In this document: positions 1-50,480 of the stretch, piece after piece | Numbering within the stretch: position 1 is the stretch's first letter | Layout: every line of letters begins with the position of its first letter | NCBI GenBank assembly: GCA_030265395.1 | Contig: JARFYF010000052.1 | Location: 84,808,900 to 84,872,899 of the forward strand | Direction: 5' to 3' | From: Rhina ancylostomus | Taxonomy: Eukaryota | Length of the DNA stretch: 64,000 bases | The notes under the pieces: model-generated | Seen by the model: only the letters and a program-made list of their open reading frames with translations | Databases searched by the model: none | What the model was told of the DNA's origin: nothing | Made by a program: the position numbers and the translations under genes

Positions 1-256
1 AGAGCAGCTGAGAAGCTGGGCATTCTGCAGCAAGTGACTCAACTCCCAACACCTCAGAGCCTTTCCAACATCTACAAAGCACAAGTTAGGAATGTGATGG
101 AATACACTCTGCTTGTCTGGATGAATGCAGCTTCAACAATATTCAAGCAGCTTGACATTATCCAGAGCAAAGCAGCCCACTTGATTGGTATCCTGTACTG
201 GTACCAGTTTAAACATTCCTTCTCTCGGTCACCACAGCTGTAGTATGTACTATCTA
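1..256 (+). mobile_element. Decayed LINE (CR1/L2 supergroup), C-terminal ORF2 fragment; continues at about 1570
   Basis: Translates KLGILQQV...IYKAQVRNVMEYTLLVWMNA...LDIIQSKAAHLIG, typical of the post-RT region of non-LTR elements. Same family as 18960-19888. Confidence 0.75.
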
Positions 257-1565
257 CAAAAACAAGAACAAAGATCAGAGAAGCAAGGAGTAGGCAATTT
301 AGACCTTTCCACCTGTAATATTCAGAGAAATCACAGCTGGTCTTTTATCTCAGTGCCACTTTTCTGTACGAAATCTATATAATTTGTTGATTCCCTTAAT
401 GTCCAAAAAGCTATTAATCTTGAATATACTCAGTGACTGACCTTGCACAGCTTTCTTAGGTAGAGAATTCCCAATACCCAATATTCACTACCTTCTGTAC
501 AGGGAAACTTCTTCATTTCTCAGTCCTGAATGGCTAACCTCTTATTTTGAGACTGTGGCCCCTAGTTCCAAATATCCCAGTCAGGAAACATGAACTCTCC
601 ACCTACTCTGTTAAGCCCCCTTCAGAATTTGGTACATTTCTGTGAGATCACCTCTGATTCTCTTTAACTCTAGAGAGTATCACTCAGTCTGCTTAATCTC
701 TCCATATCAGACAAACCTTCAATCCCAGGAATTAATACGGTGAACCTTTGCTGCACTCCCTTGGTCACAAAAGTATCCTTCTTTTTATTCTGCCAATTAC
801 AACCTCAAAGATCTAATAGATGTCAAATATAATTTCTCTTTCAAAAATCTGTGCTGACTTTGCCTAGAATAGAAACAGGAAATGCTGGAAACAGTCGGCA
901 GATTTAGGCAGCACCCATGGAAAGAGAAACAGATGAATGGTCTTTGGCCTGAAATGTTAACCCTGTTTCTCTTTCCAGCATCTGCAGCTTTTGATTTTCA
1001 TTGACACAGCCCAATGCAAATTAATTTCTTAGTGCCCTGTTACACTTCCTTAATAATAGACACTAACATTTTCCTGTCACTGATGTCAGGCTAACTGGTG
1101 TGCACTTCTCCATTTTCTCTCTTCACCACCTCCCCCCTCCCCATCCCTTTTGTTAAAAAGTGGACTTACATTTGCTACCTTCCAATCTATGGGAACTTTT
1201 TTCAAATCTGTGGGATATTGAAAGATGACATCCACTAACCCCATAGCTGCCTCTTTCAAAACCTTGGGATGTGGGTTCTCACTTCTTTGGGATTTACTTC
1301 TTTTCAGTCCCATTAATTTCTCCAGTATTTTTGTTTTATTAATATTAATTTATTTGAGTTCTTTATGTACCCTACACCAGTTTTTCCAGAGATTTTCTGT
1401 ATTTATTTCAATGAAGATAGACACAAAATATTTCTTTCGTTTCTTCGCCATTTCTTTTAAAATTCCTTCTGTTTTGGTCCGTAATGGACCAACATAACTT
1501 GTGCTTATCATTTCATTTTTACATATCTATAGAAGTTTTTATAATCTGTTTTTAAATTTAATTGG
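257..1565 (-). mobile_element. Decayed CR1 LINE inserted into the older LINE
   Basis: CR1 3' end at the left. Minus-strand peptide HPKVLKEAA...VPIDWKVANVSPLFNK is the CR1 pre-RT motif. Confidence 0.8.
868..1000. mobile_element. Short fold-back unit built from Penelope-like element termini
   Basis: Perfect 14-bp inverted arms GGAAAGAGAAACAG (919-932) and CTGTTTCTCTTTCC (963-976) surround a hammerhead-like core. Confidence 0.7.
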
Positions 1566-1569
1566 AGGT

Positions 1570-1865
1570 ATTTGCATCAGCTACTTTGAGATTTGTGGGA
1601 CAAGGGTAGCAGGTGCATGCAGACAACATCACCTATAGGTCCCTCCACCAATCATGCTCCATCATGAGTTGGGACTGTATCACTGTTCCTTTATCATCCC
1701 TGGGAATAAATCCTGAAACTCCTCACCCAAAAACACATTGCTCTATCTTCACCAGAACAAATATAATGGTTCAAGACTCAGCACTACCTTCTCAAGGGCA
1801 ATCAGAGACTGGAAACAAATGCTGGCATTGCCAGTGATAAATAGATCCCTAAAAATGAGTAACTT
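1570..1865 (+). mobile_element. 3' end of the LINE that begins at 1-256
   Basis: Tail ctcaagggcaatcagagactggaaacaaatgctggcattgccagtga is homologous to 19815-19888. Confidence 0.7.
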
Positions 1866-2439
1866 TTTTTTCCAGGATCTGATGTTGGCAGAAAGAACAT
1901 GTTATCTTAAAAAGTGTTAAACCCAGTACATGAGGAAGCCAAGATGTATCCAAGTATTTGAGTTCAACTTTTTATGCATTATCATGAATACATTTGCATA
2001 TTACTCATTGAAAACATTTACACATGAAGTGAACTTAAATTAATGTGGACTAATCATAAATAACTAATTATTTATTCAACAAATAATCATTGAAGGAGTT
2101 GACAAACATACCACAATAGAGAATTTCTACAAATCTATAGGAAAGCAGTCATCCATATTGCCTTTAATGTTTTTCAAAGTAGGGAAAGTATCTACAATAC
2201 CTTTATAGTCCAACTCCTTTCCTATATGCTCAAAATGTTATCATGAAAGTTGTCCTCCTTTAATTTAAACCGTTGGTCCTGGTAAACATCCTATAGATGG
2301 CCTCAGGATTAGCTTGCTGTTGGCTACAACAAATGAGGTGTGATTATGTGAGCTGTGCTCTTGGTGTGCAGGATTGTCGGAATGAATCATAGATGGAATA
2401 GACAGTGTCTGCAACCCATCTAGCATGGCTCCACGCCAT

Positions 2440-3960
2440 GAGAATTCTACTTGCAGGACTAATCCACTGGATGCATTGTTTCAATCTGTTCTTGGTCAGC
2501 AGAATTCATTTCTTCCTACCTTGACTCTATACTATTTTTCCCTTGTTAGATTCCTTCTGAATTATATTTGTTATATTTCTGAAGCTCTCCACCATTTTCA
2601 CAGTTTCCAGGTTTCTGACTCCTTCTGTCTCATTTTCACCATGCGTATTCAATCTGCACCTCTCTGCCACACAAGGATACCCTGAGGGCTCTTGTTTTGC
2701 CCCCGGCTGATCTTGTTCTCACACTTCCTGCACCTGCTGTCATCCCTATCCTTCCACCCAGAATAAGGAAACCCACCTTGTTCTGTCCCATAAGAAGACA
2801 TGTCCAATGGATCATCTTTGCAATTTTTGAAAGGAGCATTCTGTCCACAGCTGCCTGGTTCAGTCTTCCATTCATGCCCGTCCCACATTATCTTTGCATG
2901 GAGTTGTAAACTGTGCACCCCCTGCCCTTTTACCTTTGCCTTTTCCNNNNNNNNNNNNNNNNNNNNNNNNNNNNNNNNNNNNNNNNNNNNNNNNNNNNNN
3001 NNNNNNNNNNNNNNNNNNNNNNNNNNNNNNNNNNNNNNNNNNNNNNNNNNNNNNNNNNNNNNNNNNNNNNNNNNNNNNNNNNNNNNNNNNNNNNNNNNNN
3101 NNNNNNNNNNNNNNNNNNNNNNNNNNNNNNNNNNNNNNNNNNNNNNNNNNNNNNNNNNNNNNNNNNNNNNNNNNNNNNNNNNNNNNNNNNNNNNNNNNNN
3201 NNNNNNNNNNNNNNNNNNNNNNNNNNNNNNNNNNNNNNNNNNNNNNNNNNNNNNNNNNNNNNNNNNNNNNNNNNNNNNNNNNNNNNNNNNNNNNNNNNNN
3301 NNNNNNNNNNNNNNNNNNNNNNNNNNNNNNNNNNNNNNNNNNNNNNNNNNNNNNNNNNNNNNNNNNNNNNNNNNNNNNNNNNNNNNNNNNNNNNNNNNNN
3401 NNNNNNNNNNNNNNNNNNNNNNNNNNNNNNNNNNNNNNNNNNNNNNNNNNNNNNNNNNNNNNNNNNNNNNNNNNNNNNNNNNNNNNNNNNNNNNNNNNNN
3501 NNNNNNNNNNNNNNNNNNNNNNNNNNNNNNNNNNNNNNNNNNNNNNNNNNNNNNNNNNNNNNNNNNNNNNNNNNNNNNNNNNNNNNNNNNNNNNNNNNNN
3601 NNNNNNNNNNNNNNNNNNNNNNNNNNNNNNNNNNTATCCAGGTACACAAATAGTTCTTCCACTGAAGCAGCAATTTACTTGTACTTCATCCAATTTAGCT
3701 TTTGCTGCTCGTGATGTGGTCTTTTCCACATGGGAGAAACCAAATGCCGAATGGCTTACTGCTTTACAGAATGCCTCGGTTCAGTTTGCTAAGGTTCGAG
3801 CTTTAATTTTCCATCCCACTCCAATTCTGATCTCTGACTTTGACCTCCAAGAAAGTCTCTTGTCAGATGAAGAAAAGGCATCTCATTGTCCAATGAAGCA
3901 CATTACAACCCCAAGAGCTTCACATTGAATTCAACTGGTTTAGATAACCAGCCTTTCCAT
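2440..3960 (+). mobile_element. Decayed Penelope-like element (RT C-terminus and GIY-YIG region), spanning a gap
   Basis: After the gap: KQQFTCTSSNL followed by a frameshifted ..GETKCR.. GIY-YIG remnant, homologous to 33780-34100. Confidence 0.7.
2947..3634. other. Largest assembly gap (others at 12790, 15968, 24893, 28638, 36018, 38625, 41576, 45433, 46061, 57046, 62635)
   Basis: Runs of N. Several are exactly 100 nt, suggesting placeholder gaps of unknown size. Confidence 0.99.
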
Positions 3961-4097
3961 TTTGTATCAGAACTGTCTAGTAACGTTAACACTTGCTTTT
4001 CTCTCTTCCAAAAGATGCCACTTGATCTACGAAACATTTCAAGCAGTATTTTTTATCCCAAAGTTCCATCACTTTTTCCCTCTTCATAAAGAAAATC

Positions 4098-4823
4098 TTA
4101 CAACATAGAAGGCCATTTGGCTGTCGAGTCTATGCTGGCTCTCAGAGTGATCCCATCTGCATCATTCCTTCACATTTCCCTGTAATCTATTCTCTCCCTT
4201 CAATGCCCATCAACTCCCCCCTGATTTTCCTGCCTCCCACTTACACCAGCGGGTAATTTACAGCAGCCATTTAACCTACATGCTCTCTAGTCCGGCGTTC
4301 TGTGGTCTGGAAACTCCCATGGTCTGACCTGCTTTGAATATGTAGTACAGATCTATACTAAATAACTAATTCTAACTAAGATCTAATGAGGATCTGTACT
4401 AATCCGTAGCTAATTAACCTACCAGTGGAGCTTTTGTGATCTCAGCCAACAGTGATTTCAGCTAACAGTGTTTCTGACTTGCAGAAACATTGGGTTTCCA
4501 GACAGTTCTTGGAACATTTACAGTATGTAACCTCAGGAGTGTCTATACTTAAAAAGAAAACTTTGCCTGCTCAGAGGAAGGTAATTAGAGGCAACTTCTG
4601 TGGTCCAGATTTTCTGTGGTCTGGCACCAGTCAGGTCACAAGGGTGCTGGACTGGAGAGTTTCAACCTGTAGCTCATTTCTGAGATGCATGAGGAAACTG
4701 GAGACCTAGGGGGAAGCCCATGCAATCACAGGGAAAACAGGCAAATTCCACACAGACAACAATGGAAGTCAGAATCAAATCCACTGCAGTTGTGACGCGG
4801 CAGCACTAATCACTGTGCCACCA
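4098..4823 (-). mobile_element. HE1-like tRNA-derived V-SINE with CR1-type tail, interrupted by a DNA transposon
   Basis: CR1-like tail at 4100-4140, V-domain (gaggaaactggagacctagggggaagcccatgc) at 4690-4750 and tRNA head at 4770-4823. Homologous to 22820-23065. Confidence 0.7.
4279..4669. mobile_element. Non-autonomous Tc1/mariner (Tigger-like) DNA transposon
   Basis: TA dinucleotides on both flanks. Right end reads CAGGTTGAAACTCTCCAGTCCAGC in reverse complement versus left CAtgCTCTCTAGTCCGGC. Internal ctgtggtc(c/t)(a/g)g subrepeats. Confidence 0.5.
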
Positions 4824-4829
4824 CATTGC

Positions 4830-5155
4830 CTCTTCTCCTTCTGTTTACTTCTCCTCCAGACAGATCAACAGCGATTAACAAGCCTTCATCATTGTTTCTC
4901 AGCCGGCTCCAAGTCTACTTGTATCATTCAGTTTCTTTTCATCCCTACCTATCACAAACATTCCTTTTCTTCTCTCTCTCTACTCTGCAACTTAAAACAT
5001 GTTTGATCGCTAGCATTTCCTAGTTCTGATGAAAGCTAATCATCCTGAAACATTGACTCCATTTCTCTGTTCAGCGATGCTGATGGCCAACTGAGTACTT
5101 TCAGCATTTTCTCTTTTCCTTTCAGACTTCTAGCCTCTTCAATGTTTCCTTTTTG
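4830..5155 (+). mobile_element. Penelope-like element terminus containing a hammerhead-like motif
   Basis: AGTT-CTGATGA...GAAA-CATT-GACT at 5022-5058, followed by the common ctgagtactttcagcattttct terminus. Confidence 0.7.
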
Positions 5156-8100
5156 ATCAGTTCAACAATACTGTGTGACTGTGTTGGACAATGAATTCTA
5201 GGAGATAATGCTGCTGAGGACAGAGTTGCACTGACAGAAGTGGAATCTATCACTTATGTACAAACCAGGTATTGATGCAAATTATTAAACGGCTGCAAAA
5301 TGGCATTAAAAACAAATAGGTGGATCACTAGCCTGAATGTTAGATAATTTGGTAATTGGCTCTACTCATGATCTTGTGGATTATTGACAACTGTTTAACA
5401 TTACAGTGAAACCAATTTTGCAGTGAAGAATTGTTGTACAGAAGCAAGACTGTTGATCCACTAAACCTGATGTGTTAAATCTGTGCCATTATCACTTCCC
5501 ATTCTTTTCTTTCACTTAATCTTATTCTTCCTGCTTCCCATATCCTTTAATATTCATCTTTTGTAAGCATTGCATGTCCGTTGATCTTGTGGGAGGGTTT
5601 ATTTATTGTCTATACTTACTTTCCCCAAGCATTCAGACCAACATACTGATCAGTCATATTTACCAAATTTCTATGTACTGCAACCTTTCTCCACCACATT
5701 CTCTGTATGATGTGAGCCAGAAAAGTAAAAGCTTCCTGCCTTTTATATATAGAATTATAAGTGTCTGACCTTGCAATTTGTTTATTAACTGGCTGTATTT
5801 TACTTGCAGTTAAGGCATAATTTTATCTCATTTATTGATTTGTTGTCCAGTTTGCTGCAGACAGTTTATTATCCCTTCACGTTTTATATTTATGATACAT
5901 AATTTAACCTAGTTTTATAATGTCATCATCCCTGTATCTCTCAGGCAACGTGTGAAGTATAAAAAGAGATACACCCAAGGAGACTGAAGCCCATTGGCAT
6001 GCATCTCTGTATTATAAAAATTCTTGTTGATTGTAAGCCCTGATCCCCTCTTGAATACTCATTCTCTGCATTGGTATTTCCACCAAAATCATTTCAGGCT
6101 GTAGATCACTATCTGAAAAGTTCTGATCTGTAGGAAAGTAACAGAAGTACACAATCTTTTTTGGTAAAAAGTTGTGCAAAACTGGCCAATTTACAGACCA
6201 AGAAGCATTCATGACAGGGGGAGCTCTTTCCCCATTAAAGTTAACTTCCCAAACTCATGTTACAAGTTAGCAGTGTTCTGAATTGGAAAAACCTGACTCC
6301 TGAACAAGTCAGACTCTGTAGAGTGGTTGCAATGCGAATATGAAGCTTAATACAATAGTGCATGATGTGTTCACTCATGAAATTTGTGTGCCATCATTTA
6401 TTTTCCATACCTCAGTTAAATCAATAGCACTGATTGGTATAAAATGGAGGGAAAAGGTTGTATTACTTTAAGTGAGCCTCTGGTTGCACACAGATAATAT
6501 TCGATTTTGAGTGGCTGTTTAGAATTGAAACAGAATAAAAAGTAAATGACACAAGGTGGAAAACAAAATGTAGAACACGAGTAGTGGTGTTATGGTATTA
6601 CTATTGGAAATAACGATCGTCTTATCTATTTTCCATCAAATATAATGAAGAAAAAGAGCCTAGGGATTTATTTTTCTAAAACTATCACTATTGAACCAAT
6701 ATTGCACGTCTTCTTGAAAATACCCAGATCAAAGTGAATTAATTATGCTGTCTTTATAATAACAATAATAAACCAGCAGAATTAAGACTAATTGAAATTA
6801 CCAGTTTTTTGTTTGTGCCCTGTTTGTTTAAGGCACCAGAACATTTAAACTCAATTTTTGTTTTGTTGCTATCTGAGCATTCACATTTCTGGTCAACCAT
6901 GTGGCACGCAGTAAAGGAGTGGTGTTGACTAAAGGATTATCCGCCACTTTATGCAAGGCAGTAGCTATTGTTGCACTCACATAGTATGGGTCACTAGTGG
7001 CTCATCCATTCATGTGAATGTGTGCGTGACAGAGCTTAAAGAAAAGTTCTGTTATCACTTTAAGTCATCAAGTACTAAACCTTGATTATGAAGGCAGACA
7101 GAAAAATTGTCCTCAGATTTCCACTGAGGCAGATGCTTATAGGATTAATGTCAGTTGAATGGTTCTTTGATTTGCCCTCTATTTTTTGATGGCACATGGA
7201 GATTAGAAACTGTTTTACAGTCACTTTAAAGTAGTGGTACTCTCCAAAAGCCAATACTTTGGGATGGATTCATTCAGGGGAACTGCATTTAGTGTGCATT
7301 AAATGGTAATTATCAGTCATTGGTTTGAATGGTCATGCAATGTCTGAGAAAGTTAACCCATTCTGAGAGCAAAATGAAATGTTATTGATCTGAAACATTA
7401 ACTCTGTTTCTCTCTCCACAGATGCTGCCTGGCTTGCTGCATATTTCTAGCATTTACTGTTTTTTTAGAAATTAAAATCAGAATAACCTAAGAGATTTTA
7501 GATCCTGTGATCTGCCATTTGAACTATAATAATTTTCACTGGTCCTTTATTTCCCTTATTTGTGACTTTTGCTATCAATAAGTTCTTGCCATAAATAATA
7601 TAATCAGTAGATAATATTGATTAATAGCACAGTTTTAATTACAGGTGCAGATTCTCCCATGTATGCTAACAAATAAAACCTGTGTACAAATTTCTGTATA
7701 AACTTTGCTGATATGGGAATGAGCCACTAATTATGGAATGGCATGGAAAACAGGAATCCTGTCTGTTTGTAAATAAGATTGGCACTCTCAATCACAACCA
7801 AGCCAACACAGGCAATTAAACAAAGAAAATTATACCTGGAAGTGATTCCATGACTCTAATCTAACCTTGAGATTCAAATATTTATGAACGGCTTGAGCTT
7901 TGCTCCCATGGTTTATGATTCCATCTGAAACTTTAGATTACAGACCTATAATTTCAACATAATTATCTATTTAATATGAAAATGAAGCTTCAGTGATTTA
8001 TTTAGGACATCAGATGTGAAGATTTTTTTAAATGTTGACATCCCTTGAGAATAAATAGCTATGGATGATATATGCGGGCCAAGAAAATCCTAATTGCCCT

Positions 8101-9030
8101 CCATCCTATTTGTTAAATCGCTTGTTATCTGCCAAGGTAGTGCTGGCACTCCATTGTTTGTGAATTACTGAGAGAACAATAATCTCTAGGGATCTCGCCC
8201 TGATTTTTATTTAGCGATAAGTCGCGGCAAGTGCCTCTGTGGACACTCGACAAGCGCCCTTTTTCTCTGAATGGAAGAAGTCATGTTGCTATCGCTTGGC
8301 CTTGCTCACATATTAGACAGAGCTATTTGACTGGAACACTGTGAATAATCCGAATTCAAGACAAGCCTTTGGCACAGCAGGGGAGAAAACGAGAAGAATC
8401 CAATGTTTCTACTCCTGACACCTGAGGTGGGCAAAATACTGCTTCAATCAAGTAGGAGTTTGACTGACATCCTGGCCGCAGGGAGTAACGCAAAATTGAA
8501 TTAATACCACGTTATTAACATCTATGGGTCAGCATTACTGAAAAATTGTTGGAAAATTGGCAGCTGATACCCGGGGAACAGGGGTATTTTATCCAGTACG
8601 TTACAACGTACTGTCTAATCGGGCTGTCTGAAGAAGACAGAATGGGTTGATTTAACTCCAGCACAGATGACCAAGCGCAAAGTGAAGGTAATAGGGTTAG
8701 AGTCAGGATCGTTGGTACTGAAATGCTCCATCTACACCACGTTTACCAGAATTAATAGACACCGGAATATTATTAGGACTACATTTATCTATATCAAGAA
8801 CAGTCCTTGGATCCACTTATCTATTGAGTGATTACCCATAACCTTTCATTTGCAGCCTTTATGCACCCAAGGTTTGCTGGGTCCCTTTGGGAGTTCCTGA
8901 CTAATGAACGAGACCAGGTTAAACCCCACCGGTGGGGTTCTGTGAATGAGGACGTTCTCTATGGCGATGGTATATTGTCCCGTGCAATAGTTTCCATCCT
9001 TCCCTCGTGAAACCATCCCTCTCGACTTAC

Positions 9031-9316
9031 CTAAATTAGCTTTGAAACTACGGACGGTGTTTCCATCCTTGAACTGGTAGCCAGCTTTATTGTACTTGTC
9101 ATAGAGCATCAGCATGTGCTCCGACATTGTGTCCTGCAGCAGGTCTGGTGTGTTGGAGGTGGCGGGGCTCTCCTTCCGGGAGGAAGCTGTCGAATTCTCA
9201 CCCAAGCCAGAAATTGCTCTTAGCCCGCGGATATGTTCTTTCAGCAGATCCGAGAACGCCGCAGTTAAACAGGTCCATCCGACGCACACAAACACCAGCG
9301 CTTGAAATCTGCCCAT
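9031..9316 (-). CDS. bmp3: Bone morphogenetic protein 3, first coding exon (signal peptide and start of prodomain); remaining exons not in window
   Basis: ATG at 9316 in strong Kozak context (AGG ATG G). Translates MGRFQALVFVCVGWTCLTAAFSDLL...LLQDTMSEHMLMLYDKYNKAGYQFKDGNTVRSFKANL(G): a hydrophobic leader plus the QDxxSEHMLxLYDxY and GNTVRSF motifs of BMP3 (GDF10 has VAVHM instead). The 286-nt phase-1 exon ends at a consensus donor AG|GTAAGT (9030-9025). Adjacency to cfap299 supports bmp3 over gdf10. Confidence 0.93.
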
Positions 9317-11780: not shown

Positions 11781-14349
11781 TTTTCAGATTCCTACTAAAT
11801 TTCCATTGATCTTCACTGTCCTGAGTGTGGACTAAATTTTGCTACAATGTGTAACGATAGGATTCCGTCCGACCACACATGTTTGCTTCATCTTCATCAG
11901 AAGGCACTAAAATCTAACAACTGAAAGAGCGACAAAATGAAGATTAATTTCTCAAGTCTCAATCATAAATTAGAGTTGCTAACATTATTATTTCCGATAG
12001 TTCCTCAGTCTAACTGTAAAAGTGGGGTATCTTAGCCCAAACCCCAACAAGTGCAGCCTGACAGCACAGCTGCTGAAACGGTACCGAGGGTGTTCATTTT
12101 AAAAAATGTGTTCAGTTCGGCGGGGAAGCCGCTCAAACAACGGAGAGGCCACGGGTGGCAATGGTGCGATGTACGAAAGAATGTGCTAACACCGCAATGT
12201 ATGGAATCAGCAACAGTGACTGTATTGAGCAAGCGACACTAAGAGTGTTAAAGAGTTTTGCATTGTGTTCTTCTTTTGTACACTTTTTATTTATTATGTA
12301 TAACGTTTATTTTTCAAAGACAAAAAATATTCGGTTTGCAGTGAGAGGGTTAATAAGCAATCTTAACTGTTTCAGAAAATCTTCTCTGGTATGAAATGAT
12401 TAATAGGGCAGGGCGCACTCCTCAGATATTGGACAAGTGCCCAGGGCACACTGTTAAGTTGCAACAAAGTCAGAAATGGAAGGACATGCACAGCACACCA
12501 ATTAGCAATTCAAGGAGAAAGGTTGACGTTTTGGGCAAGGTCCTTGCATGGGAGCTGAACTCATGAATTGACGGTCAGAGACGAATCGGCCTGCAACATT
12601 GCCAGTATTATCTGTCTTCATTCAGAGTGCAAGGGTTCCTTTGTTTTATTATCCTTTCCAAAATGTTGCCTCCGCCAACCCAGTACTGAAACTTGCAGGT
12701 GGTTGTAGTGACGGATTCTGCTGCAGGACTACTCCAAATTTATACTAAAATTCAATAAGGGTTTTTTTTCAATCTTTTTATTAGGTTCTNNNNNNNNNNN
12801 NNNNNNNNNNNNNNNNNNNNNNNNNNNNNNNNNNNNNNNNNNNNNNNNNNNNNNNNNNNNNNNNNNNNNNNNNNNNNNNNNNNNNNNNNGTTTTTTTTCA
12901 ATCTTTTTATTAGGTTCTTTTTTAACTGTGGAAACCAACAGTATTTGGGGGGGGGGGGGAAGTTCAATCGATTCCCTCATCAACGGCAACTGGGAGAATT
13001 ACTGATCTTTCAGTGTAAGTCTCCAACTTCAAAGTGGGACGAGTGAAAAATACTCGCATGTTCCCTGCAATGTTATGGAAGCTCAACGCCAACAATGTAA
13101 GGCATCGCTAACACCAAGAGACGGACGTCGTCACGCAAGCTGAAGGTTCTTTCAAAAAAAGTATTGAAATAATCTCTATTCCACAGAAGACTTGGACAGA
13201 ACCCAGCTAATAACTGCATGAATGTTGCCAAATAAGGCCCAACACAGCCTTGGATAGTATTATTCCACCTTACACACTCCCAGTGCCACATATAAACCGT
13301 AAAGTCAACGGAATGGATCAAGAAGTTCAATCATGTTTGCAATGTTGTGTGATGACCTGCAGCTTTGGGCACGCACCGCTGATACCATGATACAAAAATA
13401 CCACGGAGAAGTAAAGCTGTTGGGAACTTAACTCGTAAGGGGATCACATGGCACAACTGATGTTAAACAAACTGGAAAGGAGTTATTTGCAAACACGGGA
13501 GTAGGTGATTTTAGAGAATGTCAGTCAGGTTCTGGGGCATAACAGGAAAGTGATATAGAGGCTCAGCTACAAAATAAGACAAAGGGGAAATAAGGCCTAT
13601 CTATTTTTAAAGTCAGAGAAACGATGATGTGCCGAACTTTGAAACCTGCCACTGTTTAACTGTGCCTCAGGGATCTTGCATGACCGGTCAGGACTGACAC
13701 TGCCCTCTGCTGGATGCGAGCAATGACTCGCGAATGCCGCAGGTAAATGGAACAAAACTCGACCAATTGCAATCTAGGCTGAATCCTCATGATATCATCA
13801 TCAGCCAATCATGTCGTGAGAAGGTGGGTGGGCGGGCGTGCGGCGGTGGCGATGTGTGGTTATGGTGGAAAAGCCCCGCCTGTGTTTTCTTAAAATTGGG
13901 GCACAGCAGTGTTCATTGCTTGTTTGCAATACATTTCAGATTGCAATACATTTCAGAAAGTTTAATTTGGTGACTATGCTGCCCAAATTAGAGTTATAAT
14001 GATTGGGCAATGAGTCTGTTAATCAAGTTAATGACCACACCACTGTGAGTGACTCAGGTGTAATTTATGCAACTGATTTTCGTGTAACCATCCTTCACTC
14101 ATTGCATTTTCTGAGAAATTGCCCTGTTTTTATTTGGAGAAAATGCTGTAGTTTGTATCCTCACTCTTGGTACACTGGCGGCAGAGATTTGTTTGAACTG
14201 TGAAAATTGACCCGGTTTGCTGTACAATAGACAGTTGCTATGACTCATTCACCCTGCCTCACCTCCAACTCACCGACACAGTGTTGGTAATTAATACTCT
14301 GTTTCAATAAACAAACCACATTGAATTTGGGAATAACAACTCCCATGGA

Positions 14350-16190: not shown

Positions 16191-16959
16191 GTTGGTTTCA
16201 CTCAAGTGGAATTGTCTCTTCCAATCAGATCTGGTCAGTGATGTTCAAAACACAAAGCAAATAAGGAAGGAAATACAAACACCAACAGACACAAATTCTC
16301 TGGTGTTAAATAATTTCAAAAATAGAATAATCAAACTCCTGACATCTGAGAAATGAATGATTATGAAATATAAATATAGCATGAGAAAAGTCTGGGAAAC
16401 TAATTTAGTAGGCTGGACAAATCAATAGCTATGATACTTTTCTGTGCAAAATATATTACTTGGGTGGTTTCACGCCATTAGTTGAGTTAAATTTATTCAT
16501 TTGGATGCAAACTTTCAAGGGTGGAATGAATCTTAAATTAATCAAAGGCTTTACGTGTTTTTCCCACTAATGGCCTCCATGGTCCAAAGAACAGGAATAC
16601 TAGGGCTTTGATTTGGTGAAGCACACATGGCTAAAAATGTAATATAAACATATCACAGAGGAAAGGATTGTCCTCATTAGAGCTGGTTCAATTATTCTTT
16701 TCACTACAATGTTTGTTGAACTGGTTTGGAATTAGTGTGTTGTTCTGCATATATTTAATGAGTGAAGGCATGACAATTGCATTATGTTTGTTGAATTAAT
16801 TTAGTAGCTCAGTTTGCTAAACTTATAACATCACAAAATGGATCATTATATGGTAATTCATAACCACAGAAAGATTTGAGCATATTTTGTATATTATCTT
16901 CAGGTAATGGCAGATTTCACAGCTATTAAATAAGAAACTTCAAGCCCTGGGGAAAGGTA

Positions 16960-17310
16960 AAAAGCAAAAGGTGCAGGTGCTGGCAATCTGAAAATAAATA
17001 AAGGGAAATTCTGGAAAAACTCAGAAGGTCAGACAGCATATATGGATAGAGAAAAAAAACTTGACATTTCAGGCCAATTCCTTCTCATCTGAATTAGGAC
17101 GAACTAGAAATTGAACATAGTTTAAGAGAAGAAGGGATGAGGGTGTCTGAGGTGAAGTGGAAATTAAGAGAGACTGAAGTGGTAGAGGTGCCAACTGACC
17201 AAAGGTGGTGAAGCTAATTGAAGCTGATCTGTCTGGAGCAAAAGTAAATAGAGGGAGGTGACTGAGGTAAGAGGAGAGGAGAAAAAAATGCTGCAACCAT
17301 GAAATACAAA
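16960..17310 (-). mobile_element. Penelope-like element terminus
   Basis: Terminal motif gtgcaggtgctggcaatctgaaa...ctcagaaggtcagacagcat plus a hammerhead-like core at 17058-17095. Confidence 0.7.
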
Positions 17311-29019: not shown

Positions 29020-29218
29020 TGGAGACCCAAGACACTGCAGATGCTGGAATCTGGAGCAACAAACGGTCTGATGGAGGAAATCAGTGGGTCGAGCAGCATT
29101 TCTGGGAGGAAAGGCATTGTTGATGTTTTGGGTAGAAACCTTGCATCAAGACCCAAAACATTGACAAAACGTTCACAGATGCCGCTCAACCTGCTGAGTT
29201 CCTCCATCAGACAGTTTG
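29020..29218. mobile_element. Fold-back unit made of two inverted Penelope-like termini
   Basis: Arms 29060-29104 and 29174-29218 are reverse complements with few mismatches. Flanked by an imperfect 18-bp direct repeat. Confidence 0.75.
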
Positions 29219-30110
29219 AAGCTGCAAATGCTGTAAACCTGAAATAAAACCAGAAAATGCTGAAATCACTCAGCAGGTCAGGCAGAATCTGTAGAAAGGG
29301 AAAAGCTTCAGGTCCAGGACCCTTCACCAGAACCAGGAAAAAGCAAAACCAAGTTAGTTTTGAGTATCAGAGAAGGTGAGCTGAGGATGGGGAGAACAAA
29401 GAGAATACCTCTGACATGATGAGACCAAATGACTAAGTAGCAGATTATGTTTCTTCATCTGTTTACTGTGTTGCTAATCATAAGGGCCAGACAATAAACA
29501 TAGAAAAAAGAAAAACTGAGCCAAAATGATGACAGGCAGAAATTGCCAATTCAGATAGAAAAAGAAAGAGTTTAGCTAAAGTTGGAGAATTCAATATTGA
29601 GTCCAGAAGGTTGCAACATGCCCAGAAAGAAGATGAGGTGTTGTTCCTCGAATTTGTGTTGGGCCTCATTGGGAGTGCAGGAGGCCACAGACAGAAAGGT
29701 CAAAGGTGGGAGGGGAATGGTGAATTAAAGTTCTAGGCAATGTGAAGCTCAGGGTGACTCCTGTGAACTGAATGCAGGTTCTCCACAAACCAATCACTCC
29801 AGTTGCTTTTGGTCTCTCTAATGTAGAGGAAGCCACATTGTGAACACTGAATGCAGTGCGCTAGGTTGGAAGAAGTGCAGGTGAATCATTGCTTCACCTA
29901 GAAAAACTGTTTGGATCACTGGGAAAGGAAGCAGTGATAGGACAGGTGTTGAATCTCCTGCAGTCACACAGAAAAGTGGCATATGACAGGGAGTAGTTGG
30001 TGAAAGAGTGGACCACGGAGTTGTGAGGAGAGTAGTCCCTCAAAATACTGTGAGGAGAGAGGTATATGCTTCTGGTGCTAGAACCTTGATGGATTTGGCA
30101 GAAATTCATT
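29219..30110 (-). mobile_element. Penelope-like element: GIY-YIG endonuclease remnant plus terminus
   Basis: Minus strand 29880-29740 translates CTSSNLAHCIQCSQCGFLYIRETK...PELHIA. Hammerhead-like core at 29301-29334. Confidence 0.85.
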
Positions 30111-32521: not shown

Positions 32522-32617
32522 TCAGGATTTTCTTCTTGTGATATGGTCATAGATGACTATTTGGACATAAAGTTCTGTTTCAATTAAATTTCGAGTGGTG
32601 TTATCCCCAGGAGATAC
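32522..32617 (-). CDS. cfap299: CFAP299, last coding exon including stop codon
   Basis: Polypyrimidine tract plus cAG acceptor at 32618-32619. The 96 nt are phase 0, in frame with the previous exon, and translate VSPGDNTTRNLIETELYVQIVIYDHITRRKS*, matching the human C-terminus AQPGDNSTRITILTELYVQAVIFDHISRRKT as recalled. Confidence 0.95.
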   Translation of the reverse strand, partial: VSPGDNTTRNLIETELYVQIVIYDHITRRKS

Positions 32618-33204
32618 CTGCCAAAAAAAATGAAATAGTGGTTAAAAATGCATGGTATGAGCCTAGATAATATTTTAAAGATTAACTTGTCCTTGACTTA
32701 AAAGTTCTTTTATCAGAGTGTTTGCTGATTGTTGTTTAAAGGACACAGAAAGAGATCAACAGTTCTTTCAAGGAACCCATATTTGCTGTGTAGATTTCAG
32801 AGAAAACTCAGCTTGCATCAGTCCTGGTCCATGGAGTTCACTTATCCAAAGACAAGTAATTTCGTTTTTATCCGGACATATACCCCGATTGTGATAAATT
32901 CTACAGTGGAGAGGCTTCTGTAATACACCTGCTTTGAACACGTCAATATTTGAAAATATTTCCTGAATAGGTTCTGAACATATTGCAATTAAGCATTGGT
33001 CTTCCACAGAGACAGCATCTTGTGCTCCCAGTAACTGAAGTTCTACCTTCAGGCCTCTTTCTAGTACTTTCAGAACAAAATGTTATCCTTGACTCAGTGA
33101 TCCCTTCTCCATCACTGTATGTCTTTCCCAAAATCATTCGCCCTCCTGAACAGAATACTACCTCATGGAAACAGACCAGAGGAAGTCAGAATTACATGGA
33201 AATC

Positions 33205-34446
33205 AAAGTACTGCAGAAGCTGGAAGTCTTAAAATAAAACAGAAAATGCTGGAAGTACACAGCAGGTCAGGTTGCATCTGTGGTAAGAGAAACAGATACA
33301 GCATTTCAGGTTGAAGATCCTTCATCCGAACTGGAAGGGAGAGAAAAGAAAGTCATTAAGCTGCAGGGAGGGTGGATGCCTCTGATAGGCTTAAACCAGG
33401 ATGGGGATAAGATGCAAGCAAGGTTATCTGCTCAGTGAGTGAATGGAAGCAGTTAGAGTGAGAACATAGACAGAAGAACATAGAGAAAATAATGTAGGAG
33501 TTGTGAAATGCGGACCTGGAAGACATTCCCAGCAGGTCAGGCTGGGAATGTCCCATGCTCCCAGAGGAAAAGAAGAGGGAAGTAGGTTAAAAAAAAGCAA
33601 GTAAGCTGAGCCACTCTCACAGCTGGATGTCTGATAGAGAGAAATCAAACTACCAAAAGTGGTAGAATTCAATATTGAGTCCAGAAAGCTGCAATGTGCC
33701 AGGACAGCAGATGAAGTGTTGTTTCTCATGCTTGAGTTGGGCCTTGATGTAATAGTGTAGGAGTCCTTTCACTTCTTCACTTTGCACCATCCAGGTGCAA
33801 AACAGCCTTTCCAAGTGAAGCAGTAATTCATATGCACTTCTTCTGATCTAGTTAGTGTACTGCATTTGGTGTTCACAATGTAGTATCCGCCACATTGGAG
33901 AAACCAAATGCAGGGTGGATGACTGCTTTGCAGAACACATTTATTCAGACCAAAAAGGTGATCCTGAGCTTCCCATTGCCTGCCATTTTAATTCTCCATC
34001 CCACTCCCACTCTGACCTGTTGGTCTGCGGCCTTCCGCACTGATACAATGAAGCCCAATGCAAGCTCAAGACACAACACCTTCATCTTCTTTCTGGACAT
34101 ATTGCAGCCTTCTGGAGTCTATAGTGAATTCTCTAACTGCAGGGTATTTGATTTCTCTGTCTGCATCAGTCATCCATCTGTGATGCTGGCAGAGCTTTTT
34201 TTTCTGCTTTTTTTTCTTTTTTTCCTCCTGACCTGCTGGCCATGTCTTCTTGCTCTGCTTTTCACAACTCCTGCATCCTTCTGTCCATGTTCTCACTCCC
34301 TCACTGCTCCCATTCACTCATTGACCAGACAACTTTGTTTACATTATTCCCATGGTCATCCTGGTTTTACCCTCTCAGAGACAACCCCCTTCACCACTCT
34401 CCCTGCAGTTCAACAAACTTCCTTTCTCCCCTCAGTTCTGAGGAAG
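33205..34446. mobile_element. Penelope-like element with inverted terminal structure, in the last intron of cfap299
   Basis: Central plus-strand GIY-YIG remnant VYCIWCSQCSIRHIGETKCRVDDCFAEHI...PELPIACHFNSPSHSHSDL (33855-34043). About 33320-33765 is an inverted copy of about 34020-34446. Confidence 0.85.
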
Positions 34447-36372
34447 TGAATCTCATCCATCTGCAGAATCAAATTTTTTAAGAAACATTTTTATTTTGTA
34501 AATAAATACTTGCTGGTATATGGCCTGTAATTTTCCATATGTACCACTGTAAATATGTGGACATATCATTGATAGTTAAGTAATTTTCCTTTATTATTGA
34601 CCAAAGAGAAGGTGAAAGGCTTGATGGGAAAATAGTCACCTTCTCTATTGTATCTTATGCTACAACGAAGCAAAAACCTATCAACACTTCTCAAATTCAC
34701 TGTGATCCTATTTTATTTCTGATGATAGACATTAAAATATCTTCTGTTGGTCTATGTGGCTGGTGCCACCACACCCAGACTGAATGTGTTTAGTACCAAA
34801 ATTACCAATGGATATTTATGCCAACAGCGTCTCTGTCAGGTACCTTCTGAATTTAGTTGTCACTGAAAGATCATATCCTTCTTCTTTCAGGGGTTTAAGG
34901 ATCCTAATTCAAGGGAGCTTAGGCAGTAATAAAACTGTAACTACAGCATAGAACTGGTGTAGGTTTATCACCCCATCCCCAACTCCATGCGGTTGCTAAT
35001 AATGTTTTGTCACAATTTGCTGTTACAAGCTGGACAGATAATAACAGCCTACCATATATGTGGCAGGTTTAGTTGGAGTTCAGCTGCATCAAATTGTGAA
35101 TCGTGCAATTCATGGGAGAGGCCATATTTATATATTATTTTTAGTGGTGTAAATCCTGCCAGAACTCAGCTGGAACTTTTTTAAGTCTTTGTGCAAATCT
35201 GAGTATTGCTGGTTAGAGCTGAAAATAGCTCAGGAAGTGAGCATTCTTCATATGTATATGCAGTAAACCATGACTTCTGCCAAGTGGTATGGGCCATCAC
35301 ATAATGCAGTCAAAAACATTTGGTCTCAGAATGATGATTATTGTAGCAAATGGAAGAAAAAAAATACATTGTCATGTTGAGATTCTTCTGAGGTTAGAGC
35401 TGTGGTGCAATGCTCTTTGCTTTGGGTAATAAATTAATTTAAACAAGGTTATGTTAAGAATTTTGTTACACATGGTAACCAGAACAATTCTCTCCCATGA
35501 TTGAGGCAGTGTACTGAGTACTATATTGTTTCTAGCTGCACTGTATTTGATTGTCATGCTAACAATGCTCCCTCCCCCGAAAAAATAGTGGGTCTCATTC
35601 TCTATCATTGACATTTTTCATCTTGAGAATTACAAAACATATATTTTTAAATATTATAAAATAATTGTAAACAAAATTTAAACATGCCTCTTGCTAACCC
35701 AAGATCTATGGAACTAGATCATTTTTAAACTTTGACATATTTTGTTAAATAACCTTTATTTTGGAGGAGACCATTACTCTGTTCATTGTCATTCTTTATC
35801 TTGTCACCTCGTTTGCAGCATGTGTGGACATCACTATTTACAGTTAGAACTGTGATATTAATACATGTTTATGTTGCTAAACTATTATGCTATTGCGGCG
35901 ACTGACCTTTCATGAACCGGCTCCCACGATCGCGAGCGTCGTCGGAGGCCCCGACACAAGATGGTGCGGGGCACTCCTTCTTTGTGGGCTAGTGGAGCCC
36001 GCGCGCGGGAAGGTCACNNNNNNNNNNNNNNNNNNNNNNNNNNNNNNNNNNNNNNNNNNNNNNNNNNNNNNNNNNNNNNNNNNNNNNNNNNNNNNNNNNN
36101 NNNNNNNNNNNNNNNNNACTCCTGGGAGTTCCCTATTTTTTGGAGCTGTCCTTGTCTCAATTTGAACAGAAAGCAAAAATAAAATCCTCATTCTTGAATT
36201 CTGGACCAAAAAAAACAAGTCGGAATCTGAAATCTTAACTGGCCTGTTTCTTTCTTTGATGTAGACTGACTATGTGAGTGTTTCAAGTGCTTTATGGTAT
36301 TTTCAAACTCAGAATAGAAAGAAGGTCAAAGCAGGTGGGGGAGATCAGAAAGGAACAACAAAACAGACCTAC

Positions 36373-36502
36373 CTTTGGATCCACATTCATTACTTTTCGA
36401 TCTCTTTTGTTTTTGAAAAGGAGTCCAGAAGCATTGTCTGTGATCACCTGATAAAATGGGCTGGAATTGGATGTGGAGTTCTGGGTGTCCCAGTTGTAGA
36501 AG
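36373..36502 (-). CDS. cfap299: Cilia- and flagella-associated protein 299, penultimate coding exon
   Basis: 130-nt exon with acceptor ttttatggcAG and donor AAG|GTAGGT. Translates (S)[43 protein letters not shown], matching human [44 protein letters not shown] as recalled. Not shown in this frame by the ORF track. Confidence 0.95.
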
Positions 36503-38454
36503 CTGCCATAAAATAAATAAAAACGATTGTGTTGAGCTATAATTGTTCATTCAAATACATTTTTCTAACTATGTGAAATTTGGAGAGCATACAGACTTCC
36601 TACTCAAGACTTTATTTAAACCCAGGTGCTCTCCTCAATGCAGTCCAAGAGACTCCCCGAAGAGAAAATATGAAAAAAAACTGCAGATGCTGGAAATCTG
36701 AAATGAGAGTGCGAGAAACACTCAATATGTCAGGCAGTATCTGTGGATAAAGAAACCAAGTTTACATTTAAGGTTAGAGAACTTTGTCAGAGTTTATATG
36801 TTCTTATTTCAGACTCCCTGAAGTGACAAGCTCTCTATTTAACCACACCATGTGATGGAAGAGAGAGAGTAACAGGCCATGGCAAACTACACATTTCTCT
36901 GTCACAGCTATTTCAAGTATAAAATTAAAAGACCTAAGAATTCTCCTGTTCTGAGGATCAATTATACTCTTGCCTGAGGACAATGATCTATGCTTGTAGA
37001 TGTTGACCTTCCAATTTTATTTTGTGTTGTTCTGCTCCAGAGCAGGTACAGACATGAAAAAAAAGGAGATTGTTAGGAAAGCCTTAGTTCCTGGGCATAT
37101 GTGAAAATAACATCAATTTCCATCAAAACCCTTTGTGCCATTGGATTAATAAGAACTTTCAGTGTCACTGTACAGAATAGACAGAAAAAAATGAAAATAG
37201 TAAACAACTAGGAAATGATGGGACAATTCATTAATATCCCAGTTATTTTACAATGAAGAATGGGGTAGCAGTTTTTTCATATGTTATGCAATGAGCTAGA
37301 ATGCTTTTAGTTTGGTTATTCATAACTATACTTAGCATTGTTGACTCCTGCCAGCAATATGACTCCCAACATGCTTTCATTTTAAAGTTATTGATGGCAT
37401 AAATTGTCATGGCAGGTTAGCAGTATTCATCTCGACTTTAAAATTTGACTTTTCCAGTTGATACTTCAGTCAATCTCCACCATTGTTTCAAGCCTAATTG
37501 ACAATTTCAAAAAGGCTGAAAATTTTTTAGCTGTATGGAGACAAACTCAGTTTCACTTAAAGTCTTGGTCATTGTGTAGTGACATTGAACAGCTGCAACA
37601 GCAATAATATGGCAGTGAACTTGGATTAAGGCAGACAGGTTCTTTAATCCAAGTTCACTGTCGGTGCCTATGTGACGTTTGCTGCTTTTAATATGTTTAT
37701 GTTTTGGTGTGAGACAATGCCTCGGGTATGTGACGAAAAATCTTGCACCTAGGATTTGTGCTATGTTGACAGCTCTGAGCTCTAGGAATAAATCACTTGT
37801 CAGGCTCTTCAGCCAAACAATGTTTGGTGGTTTAAAAATGAGGGGCCAAAGCTACCTTAAAAAGGAATTAATACCGCACTGGATCCAATTAGATGTGTCT
37901 GCATCTTATTAAAATCAGGCCTCAAAATAACTCGAGGAGTATCTCTTCCATTCTGTACTTTACCAAGAACTTAAACTTAGTGCATATTTTTATGAATGCT
38001 TATAGTTTGGGCTTTGGCCATAACAATTTTTTTGTGCCAATTGAGTAACGCACCCCCAACAGTTTTATAAAGATTTGGTTTTTATTGCCTAGAGGAAATG
38101 TTGGATGAATTTAAAAGTTTTTGGAACTAGTTATTTTATTGTACTCAAAGTCCAGCTGAATTCACAATCACATCTGGTGATGCAATATAGTGGGTGAGAT
38201 GACACTGTTGTTCCATCTTACAAGGTTGCTGCTCTTTGCAGTTGATGCAATTTATCAAAGGTAACCTTTTGGATATGAATTCTTGTTCCATCTTGTTACA
38301 CAAAAATTTGCTTGTGACCTTATATATGATAATACTATATATGAAATAGGTTAAAAACCTGTAAAATTGTTGCAATTTGTTTTACAAAACTGCCCATGGC
38401 ACTGTTAGATTAACTGCAAAACCCAAATGGTTCACTACTCTACTTTACGTGAGT

Positions 38455-39425: not shown

Positions 39426-42400
39426 AATGTGCTTTAGTGAAGAAAATCTTCTATCTTTATGCACCCTGACTTATACATAGCTAACTCTGATCCCACATCA
39501 AGATGATGAACACACAATAATTCCAGAAGTGATAGGCGTTTGTGCATTAAAAAATACTACAAATATAATGTGACCTGCTGTGGGTCAAGTAAGGGACTCA
39601 CTGCACCTTACTTGGGTAACTGGCGATGGGTAGCAGTTACAGTTCTGCTAATGATATCTATACTATGTGAATGACTAAAGAAAATAATAGGATCCATATG
39701 AAAATTTAACTTGCCTTGATGTGTTGAATCAGTTTTACAGACAAAAGGAAATATTCTAGAAGCAGATGAGGCATTTGATAAAGATAATGAATGTGGAAAA
39801 AACTGTTTCCACTAACTAGTAAGAGAAGCAGAGGGCACAGATTTAAGGCAATGTGCTGTATGATCCTATATTTTATTTTAATCACAATGCTCTGAATTTG
39901 CAGTGAGAATAACAATGAGGCTATTGGAACTTGCCTTTAAAATAGAGGAAATATGACAGCAATTTATGGAAAACATAGAAACAGTTAAATGTAGAAGTTC
40001 AGAAATTGCTGCTGGATCTATCTGACTTCTCCAGCGGTGATCTTTTGCAGTCCTTACTATTGAAATAACCACAAAAGCATCAACTTTCCAAACCTAGTCA
40101 ATAGTAAAAGGATGTGTGGGGAAATTTAAATTTGCCAGCTTTTGAAGGGGTCCACAAATACACTCTTAACGTGGGCAAATGTACAAGTGTAGCCATGTTC
40201 CTTCCAAACTCTGATTTTCATTCTGTAGAGTATTTAAATGTAAGTTAAGTTTTGTGTGTGTGATTGAGGACACTTCAGAGTGATTTGTTGAAGCCCCCCC
40301 ATTGACTGACAACATGAGTGCCCTGTAGAGGGCGCATGATGGAATGGATAGTTTGTCAGAGGAATTTCCACCTGTGAGAAGCTGCCAGTTAAGTGAATGA
40401 AAAATGCTGGCAGCTGAGAGGAAAATTAAAGGTGTCACATTGAACATTTCACTAAAGACAAACAGTGAAATAGGAACAGAATATCTTGGCAATACACATC
40501 AAAACAAGTAGCATTCTAAAGTGAAACATTTATAATCATTTGAATTTGACCTTCTATCGCCACAGCTTTAGTTAATCATTGTATCTGAAATGCTTCCCTT
40601 TCAGATGCTGAATGATCTGGTGTGAATTTCCAGCATTTTGTTTTCAAATTTCCATTTTTGCCTTCTATTATAACAACTAGTAAAAGTGCTTATGAAAATG
40701 ATATGTTTTGGAAACAAAGTGGGAAAACTAAAGATTCCTGCTGAATTGTGGCAGCTTCCTGATATGAGAAGAATGTTATGCACTAAATGCTTTATAATTG
40801 CAGCACATTCTCTGTTCAGATCACAATTTAGCATCTGAATTTCATGCCTGGATCAGAAATTGTGTACAGCGGGATTGTGTAGGAAGTAGTCTGCTCTTGG
40901 ATGAGATGTGCAAGTATCTTGAGAGCACTTCTTTCTTTATAATTCCCACTGCTCCAATGTGTAAAATGCTGACATCCTTACTTTTTAGAGTGGCTCTCAT
41001 GTCAAGTTTCTCCTCTGTATGTTTGAAGATATTGGGCAGGATTCTCCACTGTGGTGCTTGGGGACAGAAACCATTATCTTAACAGAGTGCATAGATAATA
41101 GGCCCATCCAATTTCCTGTTTAATCATTCAGCTAACCAGAAAATGGTGTGAGCTCCACATATGCATACAGTCTTCCCTGCCATTTTTCTTCTGTGTTCTG
41201 CCCAAGCACTGTTTTACACCTGAGTGTTAGAAGGAAAATTACTCAGTGCTCAATACTTGAAGCAAAAAAACAAACTGCTGGGGGATCTCAGTGGATCGAG
41301 TAGTATCTGTGAAGGGAGAGGAATTGTAGACGTTTTGGGTCAAGACATTTCGGATAAAGAGGAAATTCTGTTTTCACAGCGTGAATCTAATTTGTGTTCA
41401 TTAATTTACAATATGATGACATCACTGGACTGTAATCAAGGAAATTATGGTTAGTTTTTCATTTCCTAGGCCATTAGTATTTAAATAGGCTATGTTTGAG
41501 ATCAACAAGCTCAGCCTAAAATCCAGGAAACCTACTCCATCAGTTCCACAATCTCCTTCAGAAGTATTGCTTGATNNNNNNNNNNAGAAGATGTGGGATT
41601 TGAAAAACACAATTTAGAAACTGTCAGCACTTATAGCAGACCTATTTATGACTCGGAATGGAAGCTGGATGGACAGAGAGCTGAACTTAGTGTCATGTTG
41701 GTCTGTTGGGCTCAAGGGACTTAATTACCTGATTTCTTTGACTAATTGGAGGGAAGGTGTTTGTGCAATCAGCTTGTGTAGGAAGTGGTAAGTACAATGA
41801 AATTCTGTGTTTGAATGAGGGTGTGCAGTTCTCTTGAGAACATTTCTTCAGTATAACTGCCACTGAGACAAGAACATGATGTTCTGATGTTCTTACTTTT
41901 CAGAGTGTTTCTCATAGCTAAATGAACAATGAAACATCTTTGTCAAGCTTGTCCCTGGTATTTCTGACTCTCCGTGATGCTGCCTGACCTACTGTTTCAG
42001 CATTTTCTGTTTTTACTTCAGATTTCCAACATATGCAATATTTTGCTTTTTGTCACTGCTTACAACAGGGCTGAAATTGCTTTCACATTTGTTTTCAAAA
42101 AAATTACTTTCACTCTTGCATTCAAAAAATCTACATGGGCTGCTGGGCTTTAAAACCAGTGAAACTGACATTTCAGTCACTTGGTTGGCATTTGCAGATG
42201 GCCATGGGTCAATCTGGGCAGGGGAATTGGATGCTGTGAAGGAGGAATCATTGCCTTGGGAATAAGCATGAAGCAGCATTTTCTGTTTTGGTCTATAAAC
42301 TCCAGGGTGCAATAAGCCGATATGTAAGCTTTTATTTATAAAGAAAAACTCCTGTGGACCAAATAATTACTCTAACCAAGAATGGATGATCTGTGCAAAT

Positions 42401-45264: not shown

Positions 45265-45730
45265 CAAGATCCAAGAGAACTGCAGGTGCTGCAAACTGGA
45301 GCAAAATAAAACAAACTGCTGGAAGAACAGGCCGAACATCATCTGTGAGGGGACAGGAATAGTTTACTTCGGGATTGAGAGTGGAGAAGGAAGATAACTG
45401 GTATAAAGAGGAGGAGTCAGAATGGAAGTGGGNNNNNNNNNNNNNNNNNNNNNNNNNNNNNNNNNNNNNNNNNNNNNNNNNNNNNNNNNNNNNNNNNNNN
45501 NNNNNNNNNNNNNNNNNNNNNNNGGAGTCACTCTATATCTCCATCACTCTCCACTAGCATGGTCTGAACTGCTGGGCATTTTCTCTTTATACCAGCTATT
45601 TTTCCTCTCCAATCTCAATCCTGCTGCTGGGTCCTGACCTAAAACATTGACAATTCCTTTCCTTCCACTGGAGGAACTCAACGGGTTGAGCAGAAGTTAT
45701 GGGTGGGAAAAGAATTGTCGATGTTTCATA
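45265..45730. mobile_element. Penelope-like termini in both orientations around a gap
   Basis: Same terminal family as 29020-29218 (ctgcaggtgctgcaaactggagc; ggaggaactcaacgggttgagcag). Confidence 0.6.
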
Positions 45731-50124: not shown

Positions 50125-50480
50125 CAGCAGCAACAGCAACAACAACAGCTACAACTTGTGTTACATAGTGCCTTCAATGTGGCAGAACCACCACAGCCAT
50201 TTCACTGATGCATCATGAATAAAAAAAATGAACTTGGTAGGTTTTCAAGGTATGTTTTTAGAAGTAGGAAGACGTGAAAGAAGTGATGGAGAGAAAAAAG
50301 GTTGAAGCAAGGAATTCCAGAAGTTAAAGTTTGGTGGTCACCACCAATGGATGAGCAATTAAATTTGGTGTGATGGAGATGCATGCAGATATCTTGTAAG
50401 GCTGTAGGGCTGGAGGAGATTACAGACACAGTGGTGGGGGAAGAACCTGGAAAGGTTTTAAAACAAGACTGTGAATTTAG
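50125..50480 (-). mobile_element. L2 LINE 3' end with (CAA/CAG)n tail
   Basis: caacttgtgttacatagtgccttcaatg next to the microsatellite, typical of L2 3' ends. Confidence 0.6.

Follow-up and report, generated by a model that had tools for sequence, protein, structure and literature searches.

A decayed minimal hammerhead motif in the 3′ end repeat of a probable Penelope-like retroelement of the ray Rhina ancylostomus

Results

The main outcome of this analysis, which covered a 64-kb stretch of the Rhina ancylostomus genome (hereafter the window), is that the motif at 5022–5058(+) is very probably a decayed minimal type I hammerhead, situated in the 3′ end repeat of a 5′-truncated EN+ Penelope-like retroelement (PLE), likely of the Neptune type, and that this copy is inactive. 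AGTT and GACT form a helix I of 4/4 pairs, one of them U-G, which is within the 4–5 bp of minimal hammerheads (min-HHRs). Between them lie a CTGATGA box, 14 nt, a GAAA box, then CAT and T; both boxes are unaltered, and U16.1, H17 and the CUGANGA/GAAA boxes of a min-HHR are thus all present. Helix II, where at least 4 bp would be expected, retains 2/5 pairs; the predicted fold is not a hammerhead, the probability of hammerhead pairs being at most 0.01. Furthermore, the tetranucleotide 15.1–16.1 reads ACAU and not the palindromic ACGU, and a homodimer would contain two C-A mismatches. Judged from these predicted structures, the copy is likely inactive. Its core is the best among 16 aligned copies (1/13 core positions changed), and it differs from the majority sequence described below at 7/37 positions, the range in the six best copies being 4–11. 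Most likely, it is one of many dead copies and happens to look the best.

Two features adjoin the motif. A pyrimidine tract plus AG stands immediately before the first core box at 5010–5025 and 33330–33345, as well as in loose ends of sequencing contigs, and resembles a 3′ splice site placed where helix I begins; in Drosophila Penelope, an intron end is reported at that same place (PMC4209133). Immediately to the left of the motif-bearing element is a short SINE-like repeat (4691–4758).

How far such a motif exceeds chance depends on the descriptor used. Box pairs alone are at chance level, with five in the window versus 4.3 ± 2.2 in 200 dinucleotide shuffles, while adding U16.1, H17 and a helix I of 4 bp to the boxes leaves two sites (5026 and 46212) versus a shuffle mean of 0.01. 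The second site, 46207–46245(+), has hammerhead-like boxes and wobble-rich helices, lies outside the repeat family described below, and is likely a chance occurrence. In a search without filters, using a covariance model of 27 min-HHRs none of which came from the window, 5021–5059 ranked first (17.4 bits, E 0.0086) and was the sole significant match; the second-best match had an E of 0.31, and the 24 matches to E 10 include no other family copy. The model was derived from metagenome contigs (120 matches, 99 distinct, 37 past a pairing filter, 27 used), and covariation among these 27 outside motifs is circular since they were chosen by that filter. An Rfam search of the window returned no hammerhead at E ≤ 10 (three matches, none relevant), and none of 118 metagenome loci with min-HHRs, which belong to other organisms, matches the tail of the ray family.

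The motif belongs to a dense repeat family. Self-BLAST and iterated nhmmer (E ≤ 0.05) identified 20 copies of a 90–150 bp repeat in the window and none in the reversed window, i.e., one copy per 3.1 kb (61,814 non-N bases), with local identities of 67–88% between copies (Table 1). None of the 16 aligned copies contains an intact hammerhead, as the preliminary description of this DNA had stated, and the motif strings that it quoted were all found where it had placed them. Several qualify differently on inspection, however. The relic at 29334–29301(-) has an intact helix II and a deletion after GAA. The AGTT-CTGAGGA reported at 34434–34444(+) is there, but a deletion cuts the motif after this first box and the remainder is gone. 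In the short head-to-head pair, the plus arm (930–998) has a core with helix II 4/5 and AUGU, without the 5′ strand of helix I, and the minus arm (933–862) begins just past the cleavage site; the CAG at 930–932, which had been read as the start of the plus-strand box, falls inside a perfect 15-bp inverted arm, of which the inverted partner may be the source. Four head-to-head pairs occur (862–998, 29026–29217, 33197–34470 and 45271–45670), i.e., the truncation with an inverted copy that is typical of EN+ PLEs. Among 15 non-seed matches, 14 begin within a span from 5 nt ahead of C3 to 49 nt past it, a figure to be read with the tendency of local alignments to begin late on diverged copies. Many copies also share a 3′ end ~120–130 nt after C3, which we infer to be where reverse transcription starts. 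Self-comparison of the window revealed no head-to-tail tandem units and the aligned copies hold 0/16 complete motifs, so the window copies lack the layout that defines non-LTR retrozymes. For the element at 5022, self-comparison matches 4835–4867 to 17257–17225, and no target-site duplication of at least 7 nt was found around 4835–5156.

Table 1. Host exons, the motif and copies of the repeat family in the window
Feature	Position	Strand	Remarks
BMP3 exon 1	9029..9316	-	GT donor; 94% identical to sawfish protein
Last two exons of DUF4464 gene	32525..36504	-	36504-36373, 32617-32525
Decayed minimal type I hammerhead	5022..5058	+	helix I 4/4, helix II 2/5, ACAU
5′-truncated 3′ end repeat (pseudo-LTR fragment) holding the motif	4835..5156	+	left edge approximate
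Longer copy	29210..29930	-	GIY-YIG ORF end 29930-29578, ~250 bp spacer, relic 29334-29301, tail
Copy with ORF end	33197..33775	-	ORF end 33775-33656, relic 33332-33297; arm of head-to-head inverted pair
Inverted partner	33789..34470	+	best GIY-YIG remnant, 33852-34103
Subfamily A copy	16958..17257	-	relic 17095-17058; helix I 3/4, helix II 2/5, AUGU
Short head-to-head pair	862..998	both	+ arm 930-998, - arm 933-862
Subfamily A stub	7374..7466	+	starts inside first core box; ACAU
Heavily decayed copy	3636..4068	+	GIY-YIG remnant 3682-3944, diverged end repeat
Subfamily A stub	36674..36790	-	CA at core positions 7-8, G12 lost
Subfamily B head-to-head pair	29026..29217	both	A for G12, TGC at 7-9
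Three subfamily B pieces	45271..45729	both	45410-45271(-), 45526-45670(+), 45729-45666(-); mutually inverted; assembly gap
Subfamily B stub	41232..41351	-	ACGT, A for G12
Short subfamily B fragment	12500..12550	-	ACGT, A for G12, TGC at 7-9; misses the family cut-off (nhmmer E 0.47)

Other repeats and arrangements deserve mention in their own right. In two long copies, part of the tail motif recurs ~200 bp 5′ of the hammerhead, at 33510–33545(-) and 34225–34260(+). At 29026–29334, a subfamily B fold-back pair and a subfamily A copy meet tail to tail, the pair adjoining the A copy's 3′ end, which may reflect insertion beside older copies. Decayed LINE-type RT fragments, presumably CR1-like, are found at 19400–19800, 38440–39470, 50480–50780 and 59600–63340.

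The Penelope-like origin proposed earlier is borne out by protein remnants. Three copies extend 250–330 bp upstream to decayed GIY-YIG ORF ends, where the ORF of an EN+ PLE would end, and a GIY-YIG profile built from RT + GIY-YIG ORFs outside the window matches 33852–34016 (2e-11) and 29930–29718 (6e-8), with no match in a reversed control. When its stop is read as X, the 33852 piece matched 561 proteins, led by five from skate, sharks and a stingray; 4/8 scanned relatives have RVT_1 and, after it, a GIY-YIG domain at the C-terminus, and 5/6 of those inspected have a CX2-5CxxC linker, a remnant of which (one Cys lost) survives in the window near 29950. Because of the GIY-YIG ORF ends, this linker, and the 5′ truncation with inverted copies, we assign the window repeats to the 3′ end repeats of an EN+ PLE, a sequence-based assignment that is likely correct, with Neptune as the likely type; the linker being common to Neptune and Nematis, the clade call is one of linker plus domain order and not of an RT tree. 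The window yielded neither a full-length element nor any RT portion of this family, and the 5022 copy is without an ORF remnant of its own. Pfam gave no match on four decayed ORF pieces, nor did a word-indexed protein search with the X-read GIY-YIG piece.

Relatives of the element turn up elsewhere. Five predicted skate, shark and ray proteins (P0013–P0017) have unrelated N-termini and terminate in pieces of this element's GIY-YIG domain, which are either exonised or mispredicted. A metagenome contig (L044:260–3406) carries an intact 1049-aa RT + GIY-YIG ORF, and its minimal hammerhead (323–349) and the start of the frame overlap, an arrangement shared with the Anolis element.

Although every copy in the window is broken, the ancestral motif can be reconstructed, as had been claimed. 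A majority sequence taken over the six best subfamily A copies forms 9/9 pairs around CUGANGA/GAAA and includes the bulged base, as in min-HHRs; as a monomer, this sequence is predicted to form helix II with a probability of 0.98–1.0 and helix I with one of only 0.27–0.56. Sequencing contigs agree. At 80% or more, 8,740 (run X1, which contains the window locus without differences), 8,260 (X2) and 11,930 (X7) contigs aligned to 33150–33800; those of four runs restore U4 at 33327 (4485/4739 of the depth in run X1), and loose ends from 202–259 contigs per run supply a paired helix II, GAAA and the 3′ strand of helix I. At 930–979, where 1,564–2,737 contigs align in runs X1, X4 and X7, loose ends supply the pyrimidine tract and the 5′ strand of helix I. 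The family is shared by contigs under four species labels (Rhina ancylostomus and three related species). Dividing summed depth by single-copy depth gives values of roughly 35,000 in the tail and 6,000 in the 3′ half of the motif, to be taken as orders of magnitude because depth is not copy number. The very high copy number of ribozymes that had been proposed must be reworded, since what abounds is relics. The covariation test suggested for helices I and II was negative on the 16 window copies (51.8% paired versus 51.6% shuffled; 304/500 shuffles reach the score), which is what neutral decay from one or two masters predicts.

The ancestor put forward in the preliminary description did not stand as written. 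It is a composite of pieces drawn from two subfamilies, since both of its ACGT witnesses are subfamily B: ACGT is indeed present at 12525 and 41329, but it follows CAAA instead of GAA, in minus-strand subfamily B copies in which G12 is A. In subfamily A, position 11.1 is T and 8/9 copies keep G12; subfamily B has A at 12 in 5/7 copies and TGC at core 7–9 in 3/3 readable copies: 29146(-), 12548(-) and 45625(+). Subfamily B represents either a variant of the core or a master whose ribozyme was already dead when it spread; its core pattern gave one viral and 31 prokaryotic matches in 596 Gb, close to the ~22 estimated for chance.

The suggestion that an ACGT palindrome had undergone CpG decay fared better. 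States at 15.2/16.2 in 15 copies are CA 6, TG 4, CG 3 and other 2, and in eight subfamily A copies TG 4, CA 2, CG 1 and TC 1, three of the states having been read by eye because the gapless alignment shifts those rows by one column. In a crude model, ancestral CG with fast decay has lnL -24.5, versus -32.0 to -38.2 for the alternatives. The subfamily A ancestor thus appears, from these states, to have carried an ACGU palindrome, which persists as ACGT in a single subfamily A copy, 3636..4068(+). Core position 7, taken as U in the earlier ancestor, was more likely C. Contigs breaking at 939–941 (247, 330, 327) have CA at core 7–8 in 8/9 rows, and those reaching 932 (181, 278, 306) fit TG, a split that suggests an ancestral CUGACGA; alternatively, CA at 7–8 would mark a separate CA subfamily and not CpG decay. 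If position 7 was C, CpG decay probably strikes the core at up to three sites. The literature searched yielded no description of CpG decay in hammerhead cores.

Several copies reside in host introns, as had been proposed, with the qualification that the one at 5022 lies on the strand opposite its host gene. No later BMP3 exon is present in the 64-kb window, so we infer that 1–9028 is BMP3 intron 1, which would place the 5022 copy antisense within it together with the other core-bearing copies (4/4 antisense). The copy at 33332 lies within the last intron of the DUF4464 gene, in sense orientation. We take that gene to be CFAP299; its exons and BMP3 exon 1 are on the same strand. Since sense copies occur both in this last intron and upstream of it, the four antisense BMP3 copies do not amount to an orientation bias.

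Discussion

The reading that best accounts for these results is that the 5022 motif is the inactive relic of a min-HHR in a PLE end repeat. Going by published work, a tandem transcript of the parent element would contain two motifs whose ACGU sequences pair and thereby make helix III, with cutting after GUH that was probably protein assisted. Reverse transcription would have begun ~100 nt 3′ of the cleavage site and in most cases ended early, leaving stubs. After insertion, host methylation would mutate the CpG at 15.2/16.2, probably also at 7/8, and in subfamily B at 11.1/12, and would thereby remove the palindrome and disable the core faster than the flanks.

The alternative that survives best, though unlikely, is that the 90–130 bp stubs constitute a non-autonomous SINE- or retrozyme-like family, copied as its own short RNA by Penelope enzymes. 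The clustering of 14/15 starts from -5 to +49 nt of C3, the single 3′ end of many copies and a contig depth on the tail ~35-fold that on the ORF end would all suit such a family, and retrozymes derive from PLE end repeats and are present in one chondrichthyan (bioRxiv 10.64898/2026.07.22.740005). However, copy lengths form a continuum to 700 bp that runs into the GIY-YIG ORF, start points are spread and partly reflect late local-alignment starts on diverged copies, self-comparison of the window shows no head-to-tail units, and stubs that start within the core could not self-cleave.

A bolder proposal, which we hold to be very unlikely, has two separate parts. First, ACAU and AUGU copies, the two CpG-decay products, are exact complements (4/4 pairs), and such copies on the same strand of one intron could rescue each other as heterodimers that cut host pre-mRNA. 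If true, host pre-mRNAs of cartilaginous fishes would be cut wherever an ACAU and an AUGU copy share one long intron; this presumes tens of thousands of family copies or more. Second, subfamily B could be an undescribed variant core that spread, in which case an extra or substituted C after G8 would have been compatible with mobility.

That the 5022 copy is under selection as an active or structural RNA near BMP3, like the intronic hammerheads of amniotes, strikes us as extremely improbable. Domesticated intronic hammerheads do exist (PMC6155905), and this copy combines the best core of 16 (1/13 changed, helix I 4/4) with the sole significant model match; yet the best among 16–20 copies is expected to look good, its 7/37 differences from the majority resemble those of its siblings (4–11, six best), helix II (2/5), the non-hammerhead fold and an ACAU without self-pairing speak against activity, and it is antisense to BMP3. 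Finally, chance resemblance within a repeat of another kind has a practically negligible probability: box pairs alone are at chance level (5 versus 4.3), the unrelated 46212 site passes a loose descriptor and Rfam is empty, but the PLE end-repeat position, the bulged A before helix II, the palindromic ACGU and the paired majority are those of the published motif.

The decayed PLE hammerhead that we favor changes no current view, the 5022 relic being real but ordinary. It extends Penelope min-HHRs to a ray, in which relics are dense (1 per 3.1 kb in the window), and the family is a handy large sample for determining where Penelope reverse transcription starts and stops. It also points to a plausible route of host disarming: because the catalytic core is CpG-rich, methylation would mutate it first.

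Earlier publications already cover the motif class, its end-repeat position and how abundant it is in the genomes of fishes and amphibians. Min-HHRs lack helix III and cleave weakly, as dimers only, through their palindrome (PMC4209133; PMC6765202), most PLE motifs are single, truncated element ends (PMC4209133), and min-HHRs are reported in fish PLEs of the Xena, Poseidon and Neptune groups and number in the thousands in coelacanth and in Xenopus (Cervera and de la Pena 2014, PMC4209133). Published whale shark work lists Penelope elements, the second supplement file of PMC4209133 contains no shark or skate names, and we found no description of elasmobranch Penelope min-HHRs in the literature searched, a selection sparse in subscription papers.

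Compared with the min-HHRs described in PMC4209133, the ray motif is likewise type I without helix III, with a 4–5 bp helix I, a palindromic 15.2–16.2, an unpaired base before helix II, an end-repeat position and mostly single truncated copies. It differs in its ray host, in a helix II of 5 bp that subfamily A closes by A/G-U and not by G10.1-C11.1, and in that all window copies are broken. Neptune and Nematis EN+ elements have the CX2-5CxxC linker and are heavily truncated at the 5′ end, next to an inverted copy (Craig et al. 2021, PMC8557442); the ray family shares with them the C-terminal GIY-YIG, linker, truncation, inverted copy and hammerhead in a pseudo-LTR, the difference being that no RT was seen in the ray window. 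Non-LTR retrozymes (bioRxiv 10.64898/2026.07.22.740005) also have a PLE-derived type I hammerhead and occur in one chondrichthyan genome, but they are head-to-tail with complete motifs, whereas the ray copies are dispersed or inverted and incomplete. In the Anolis Poseidon element PAc, hammerhead cleavage was shown and needs the element protein, the motif itself being dispensable for insertion in vitro (Frangieh et al. 2024, PMC11167929). PAc, too, has a minimal hammerhead in its end repeat, although it belongs to another clade. Reverse transcription in PAc starts at a fixed distance downstream of the motif (PMC11167929), a property that would explain the shared 3′ end of the copies in the window.
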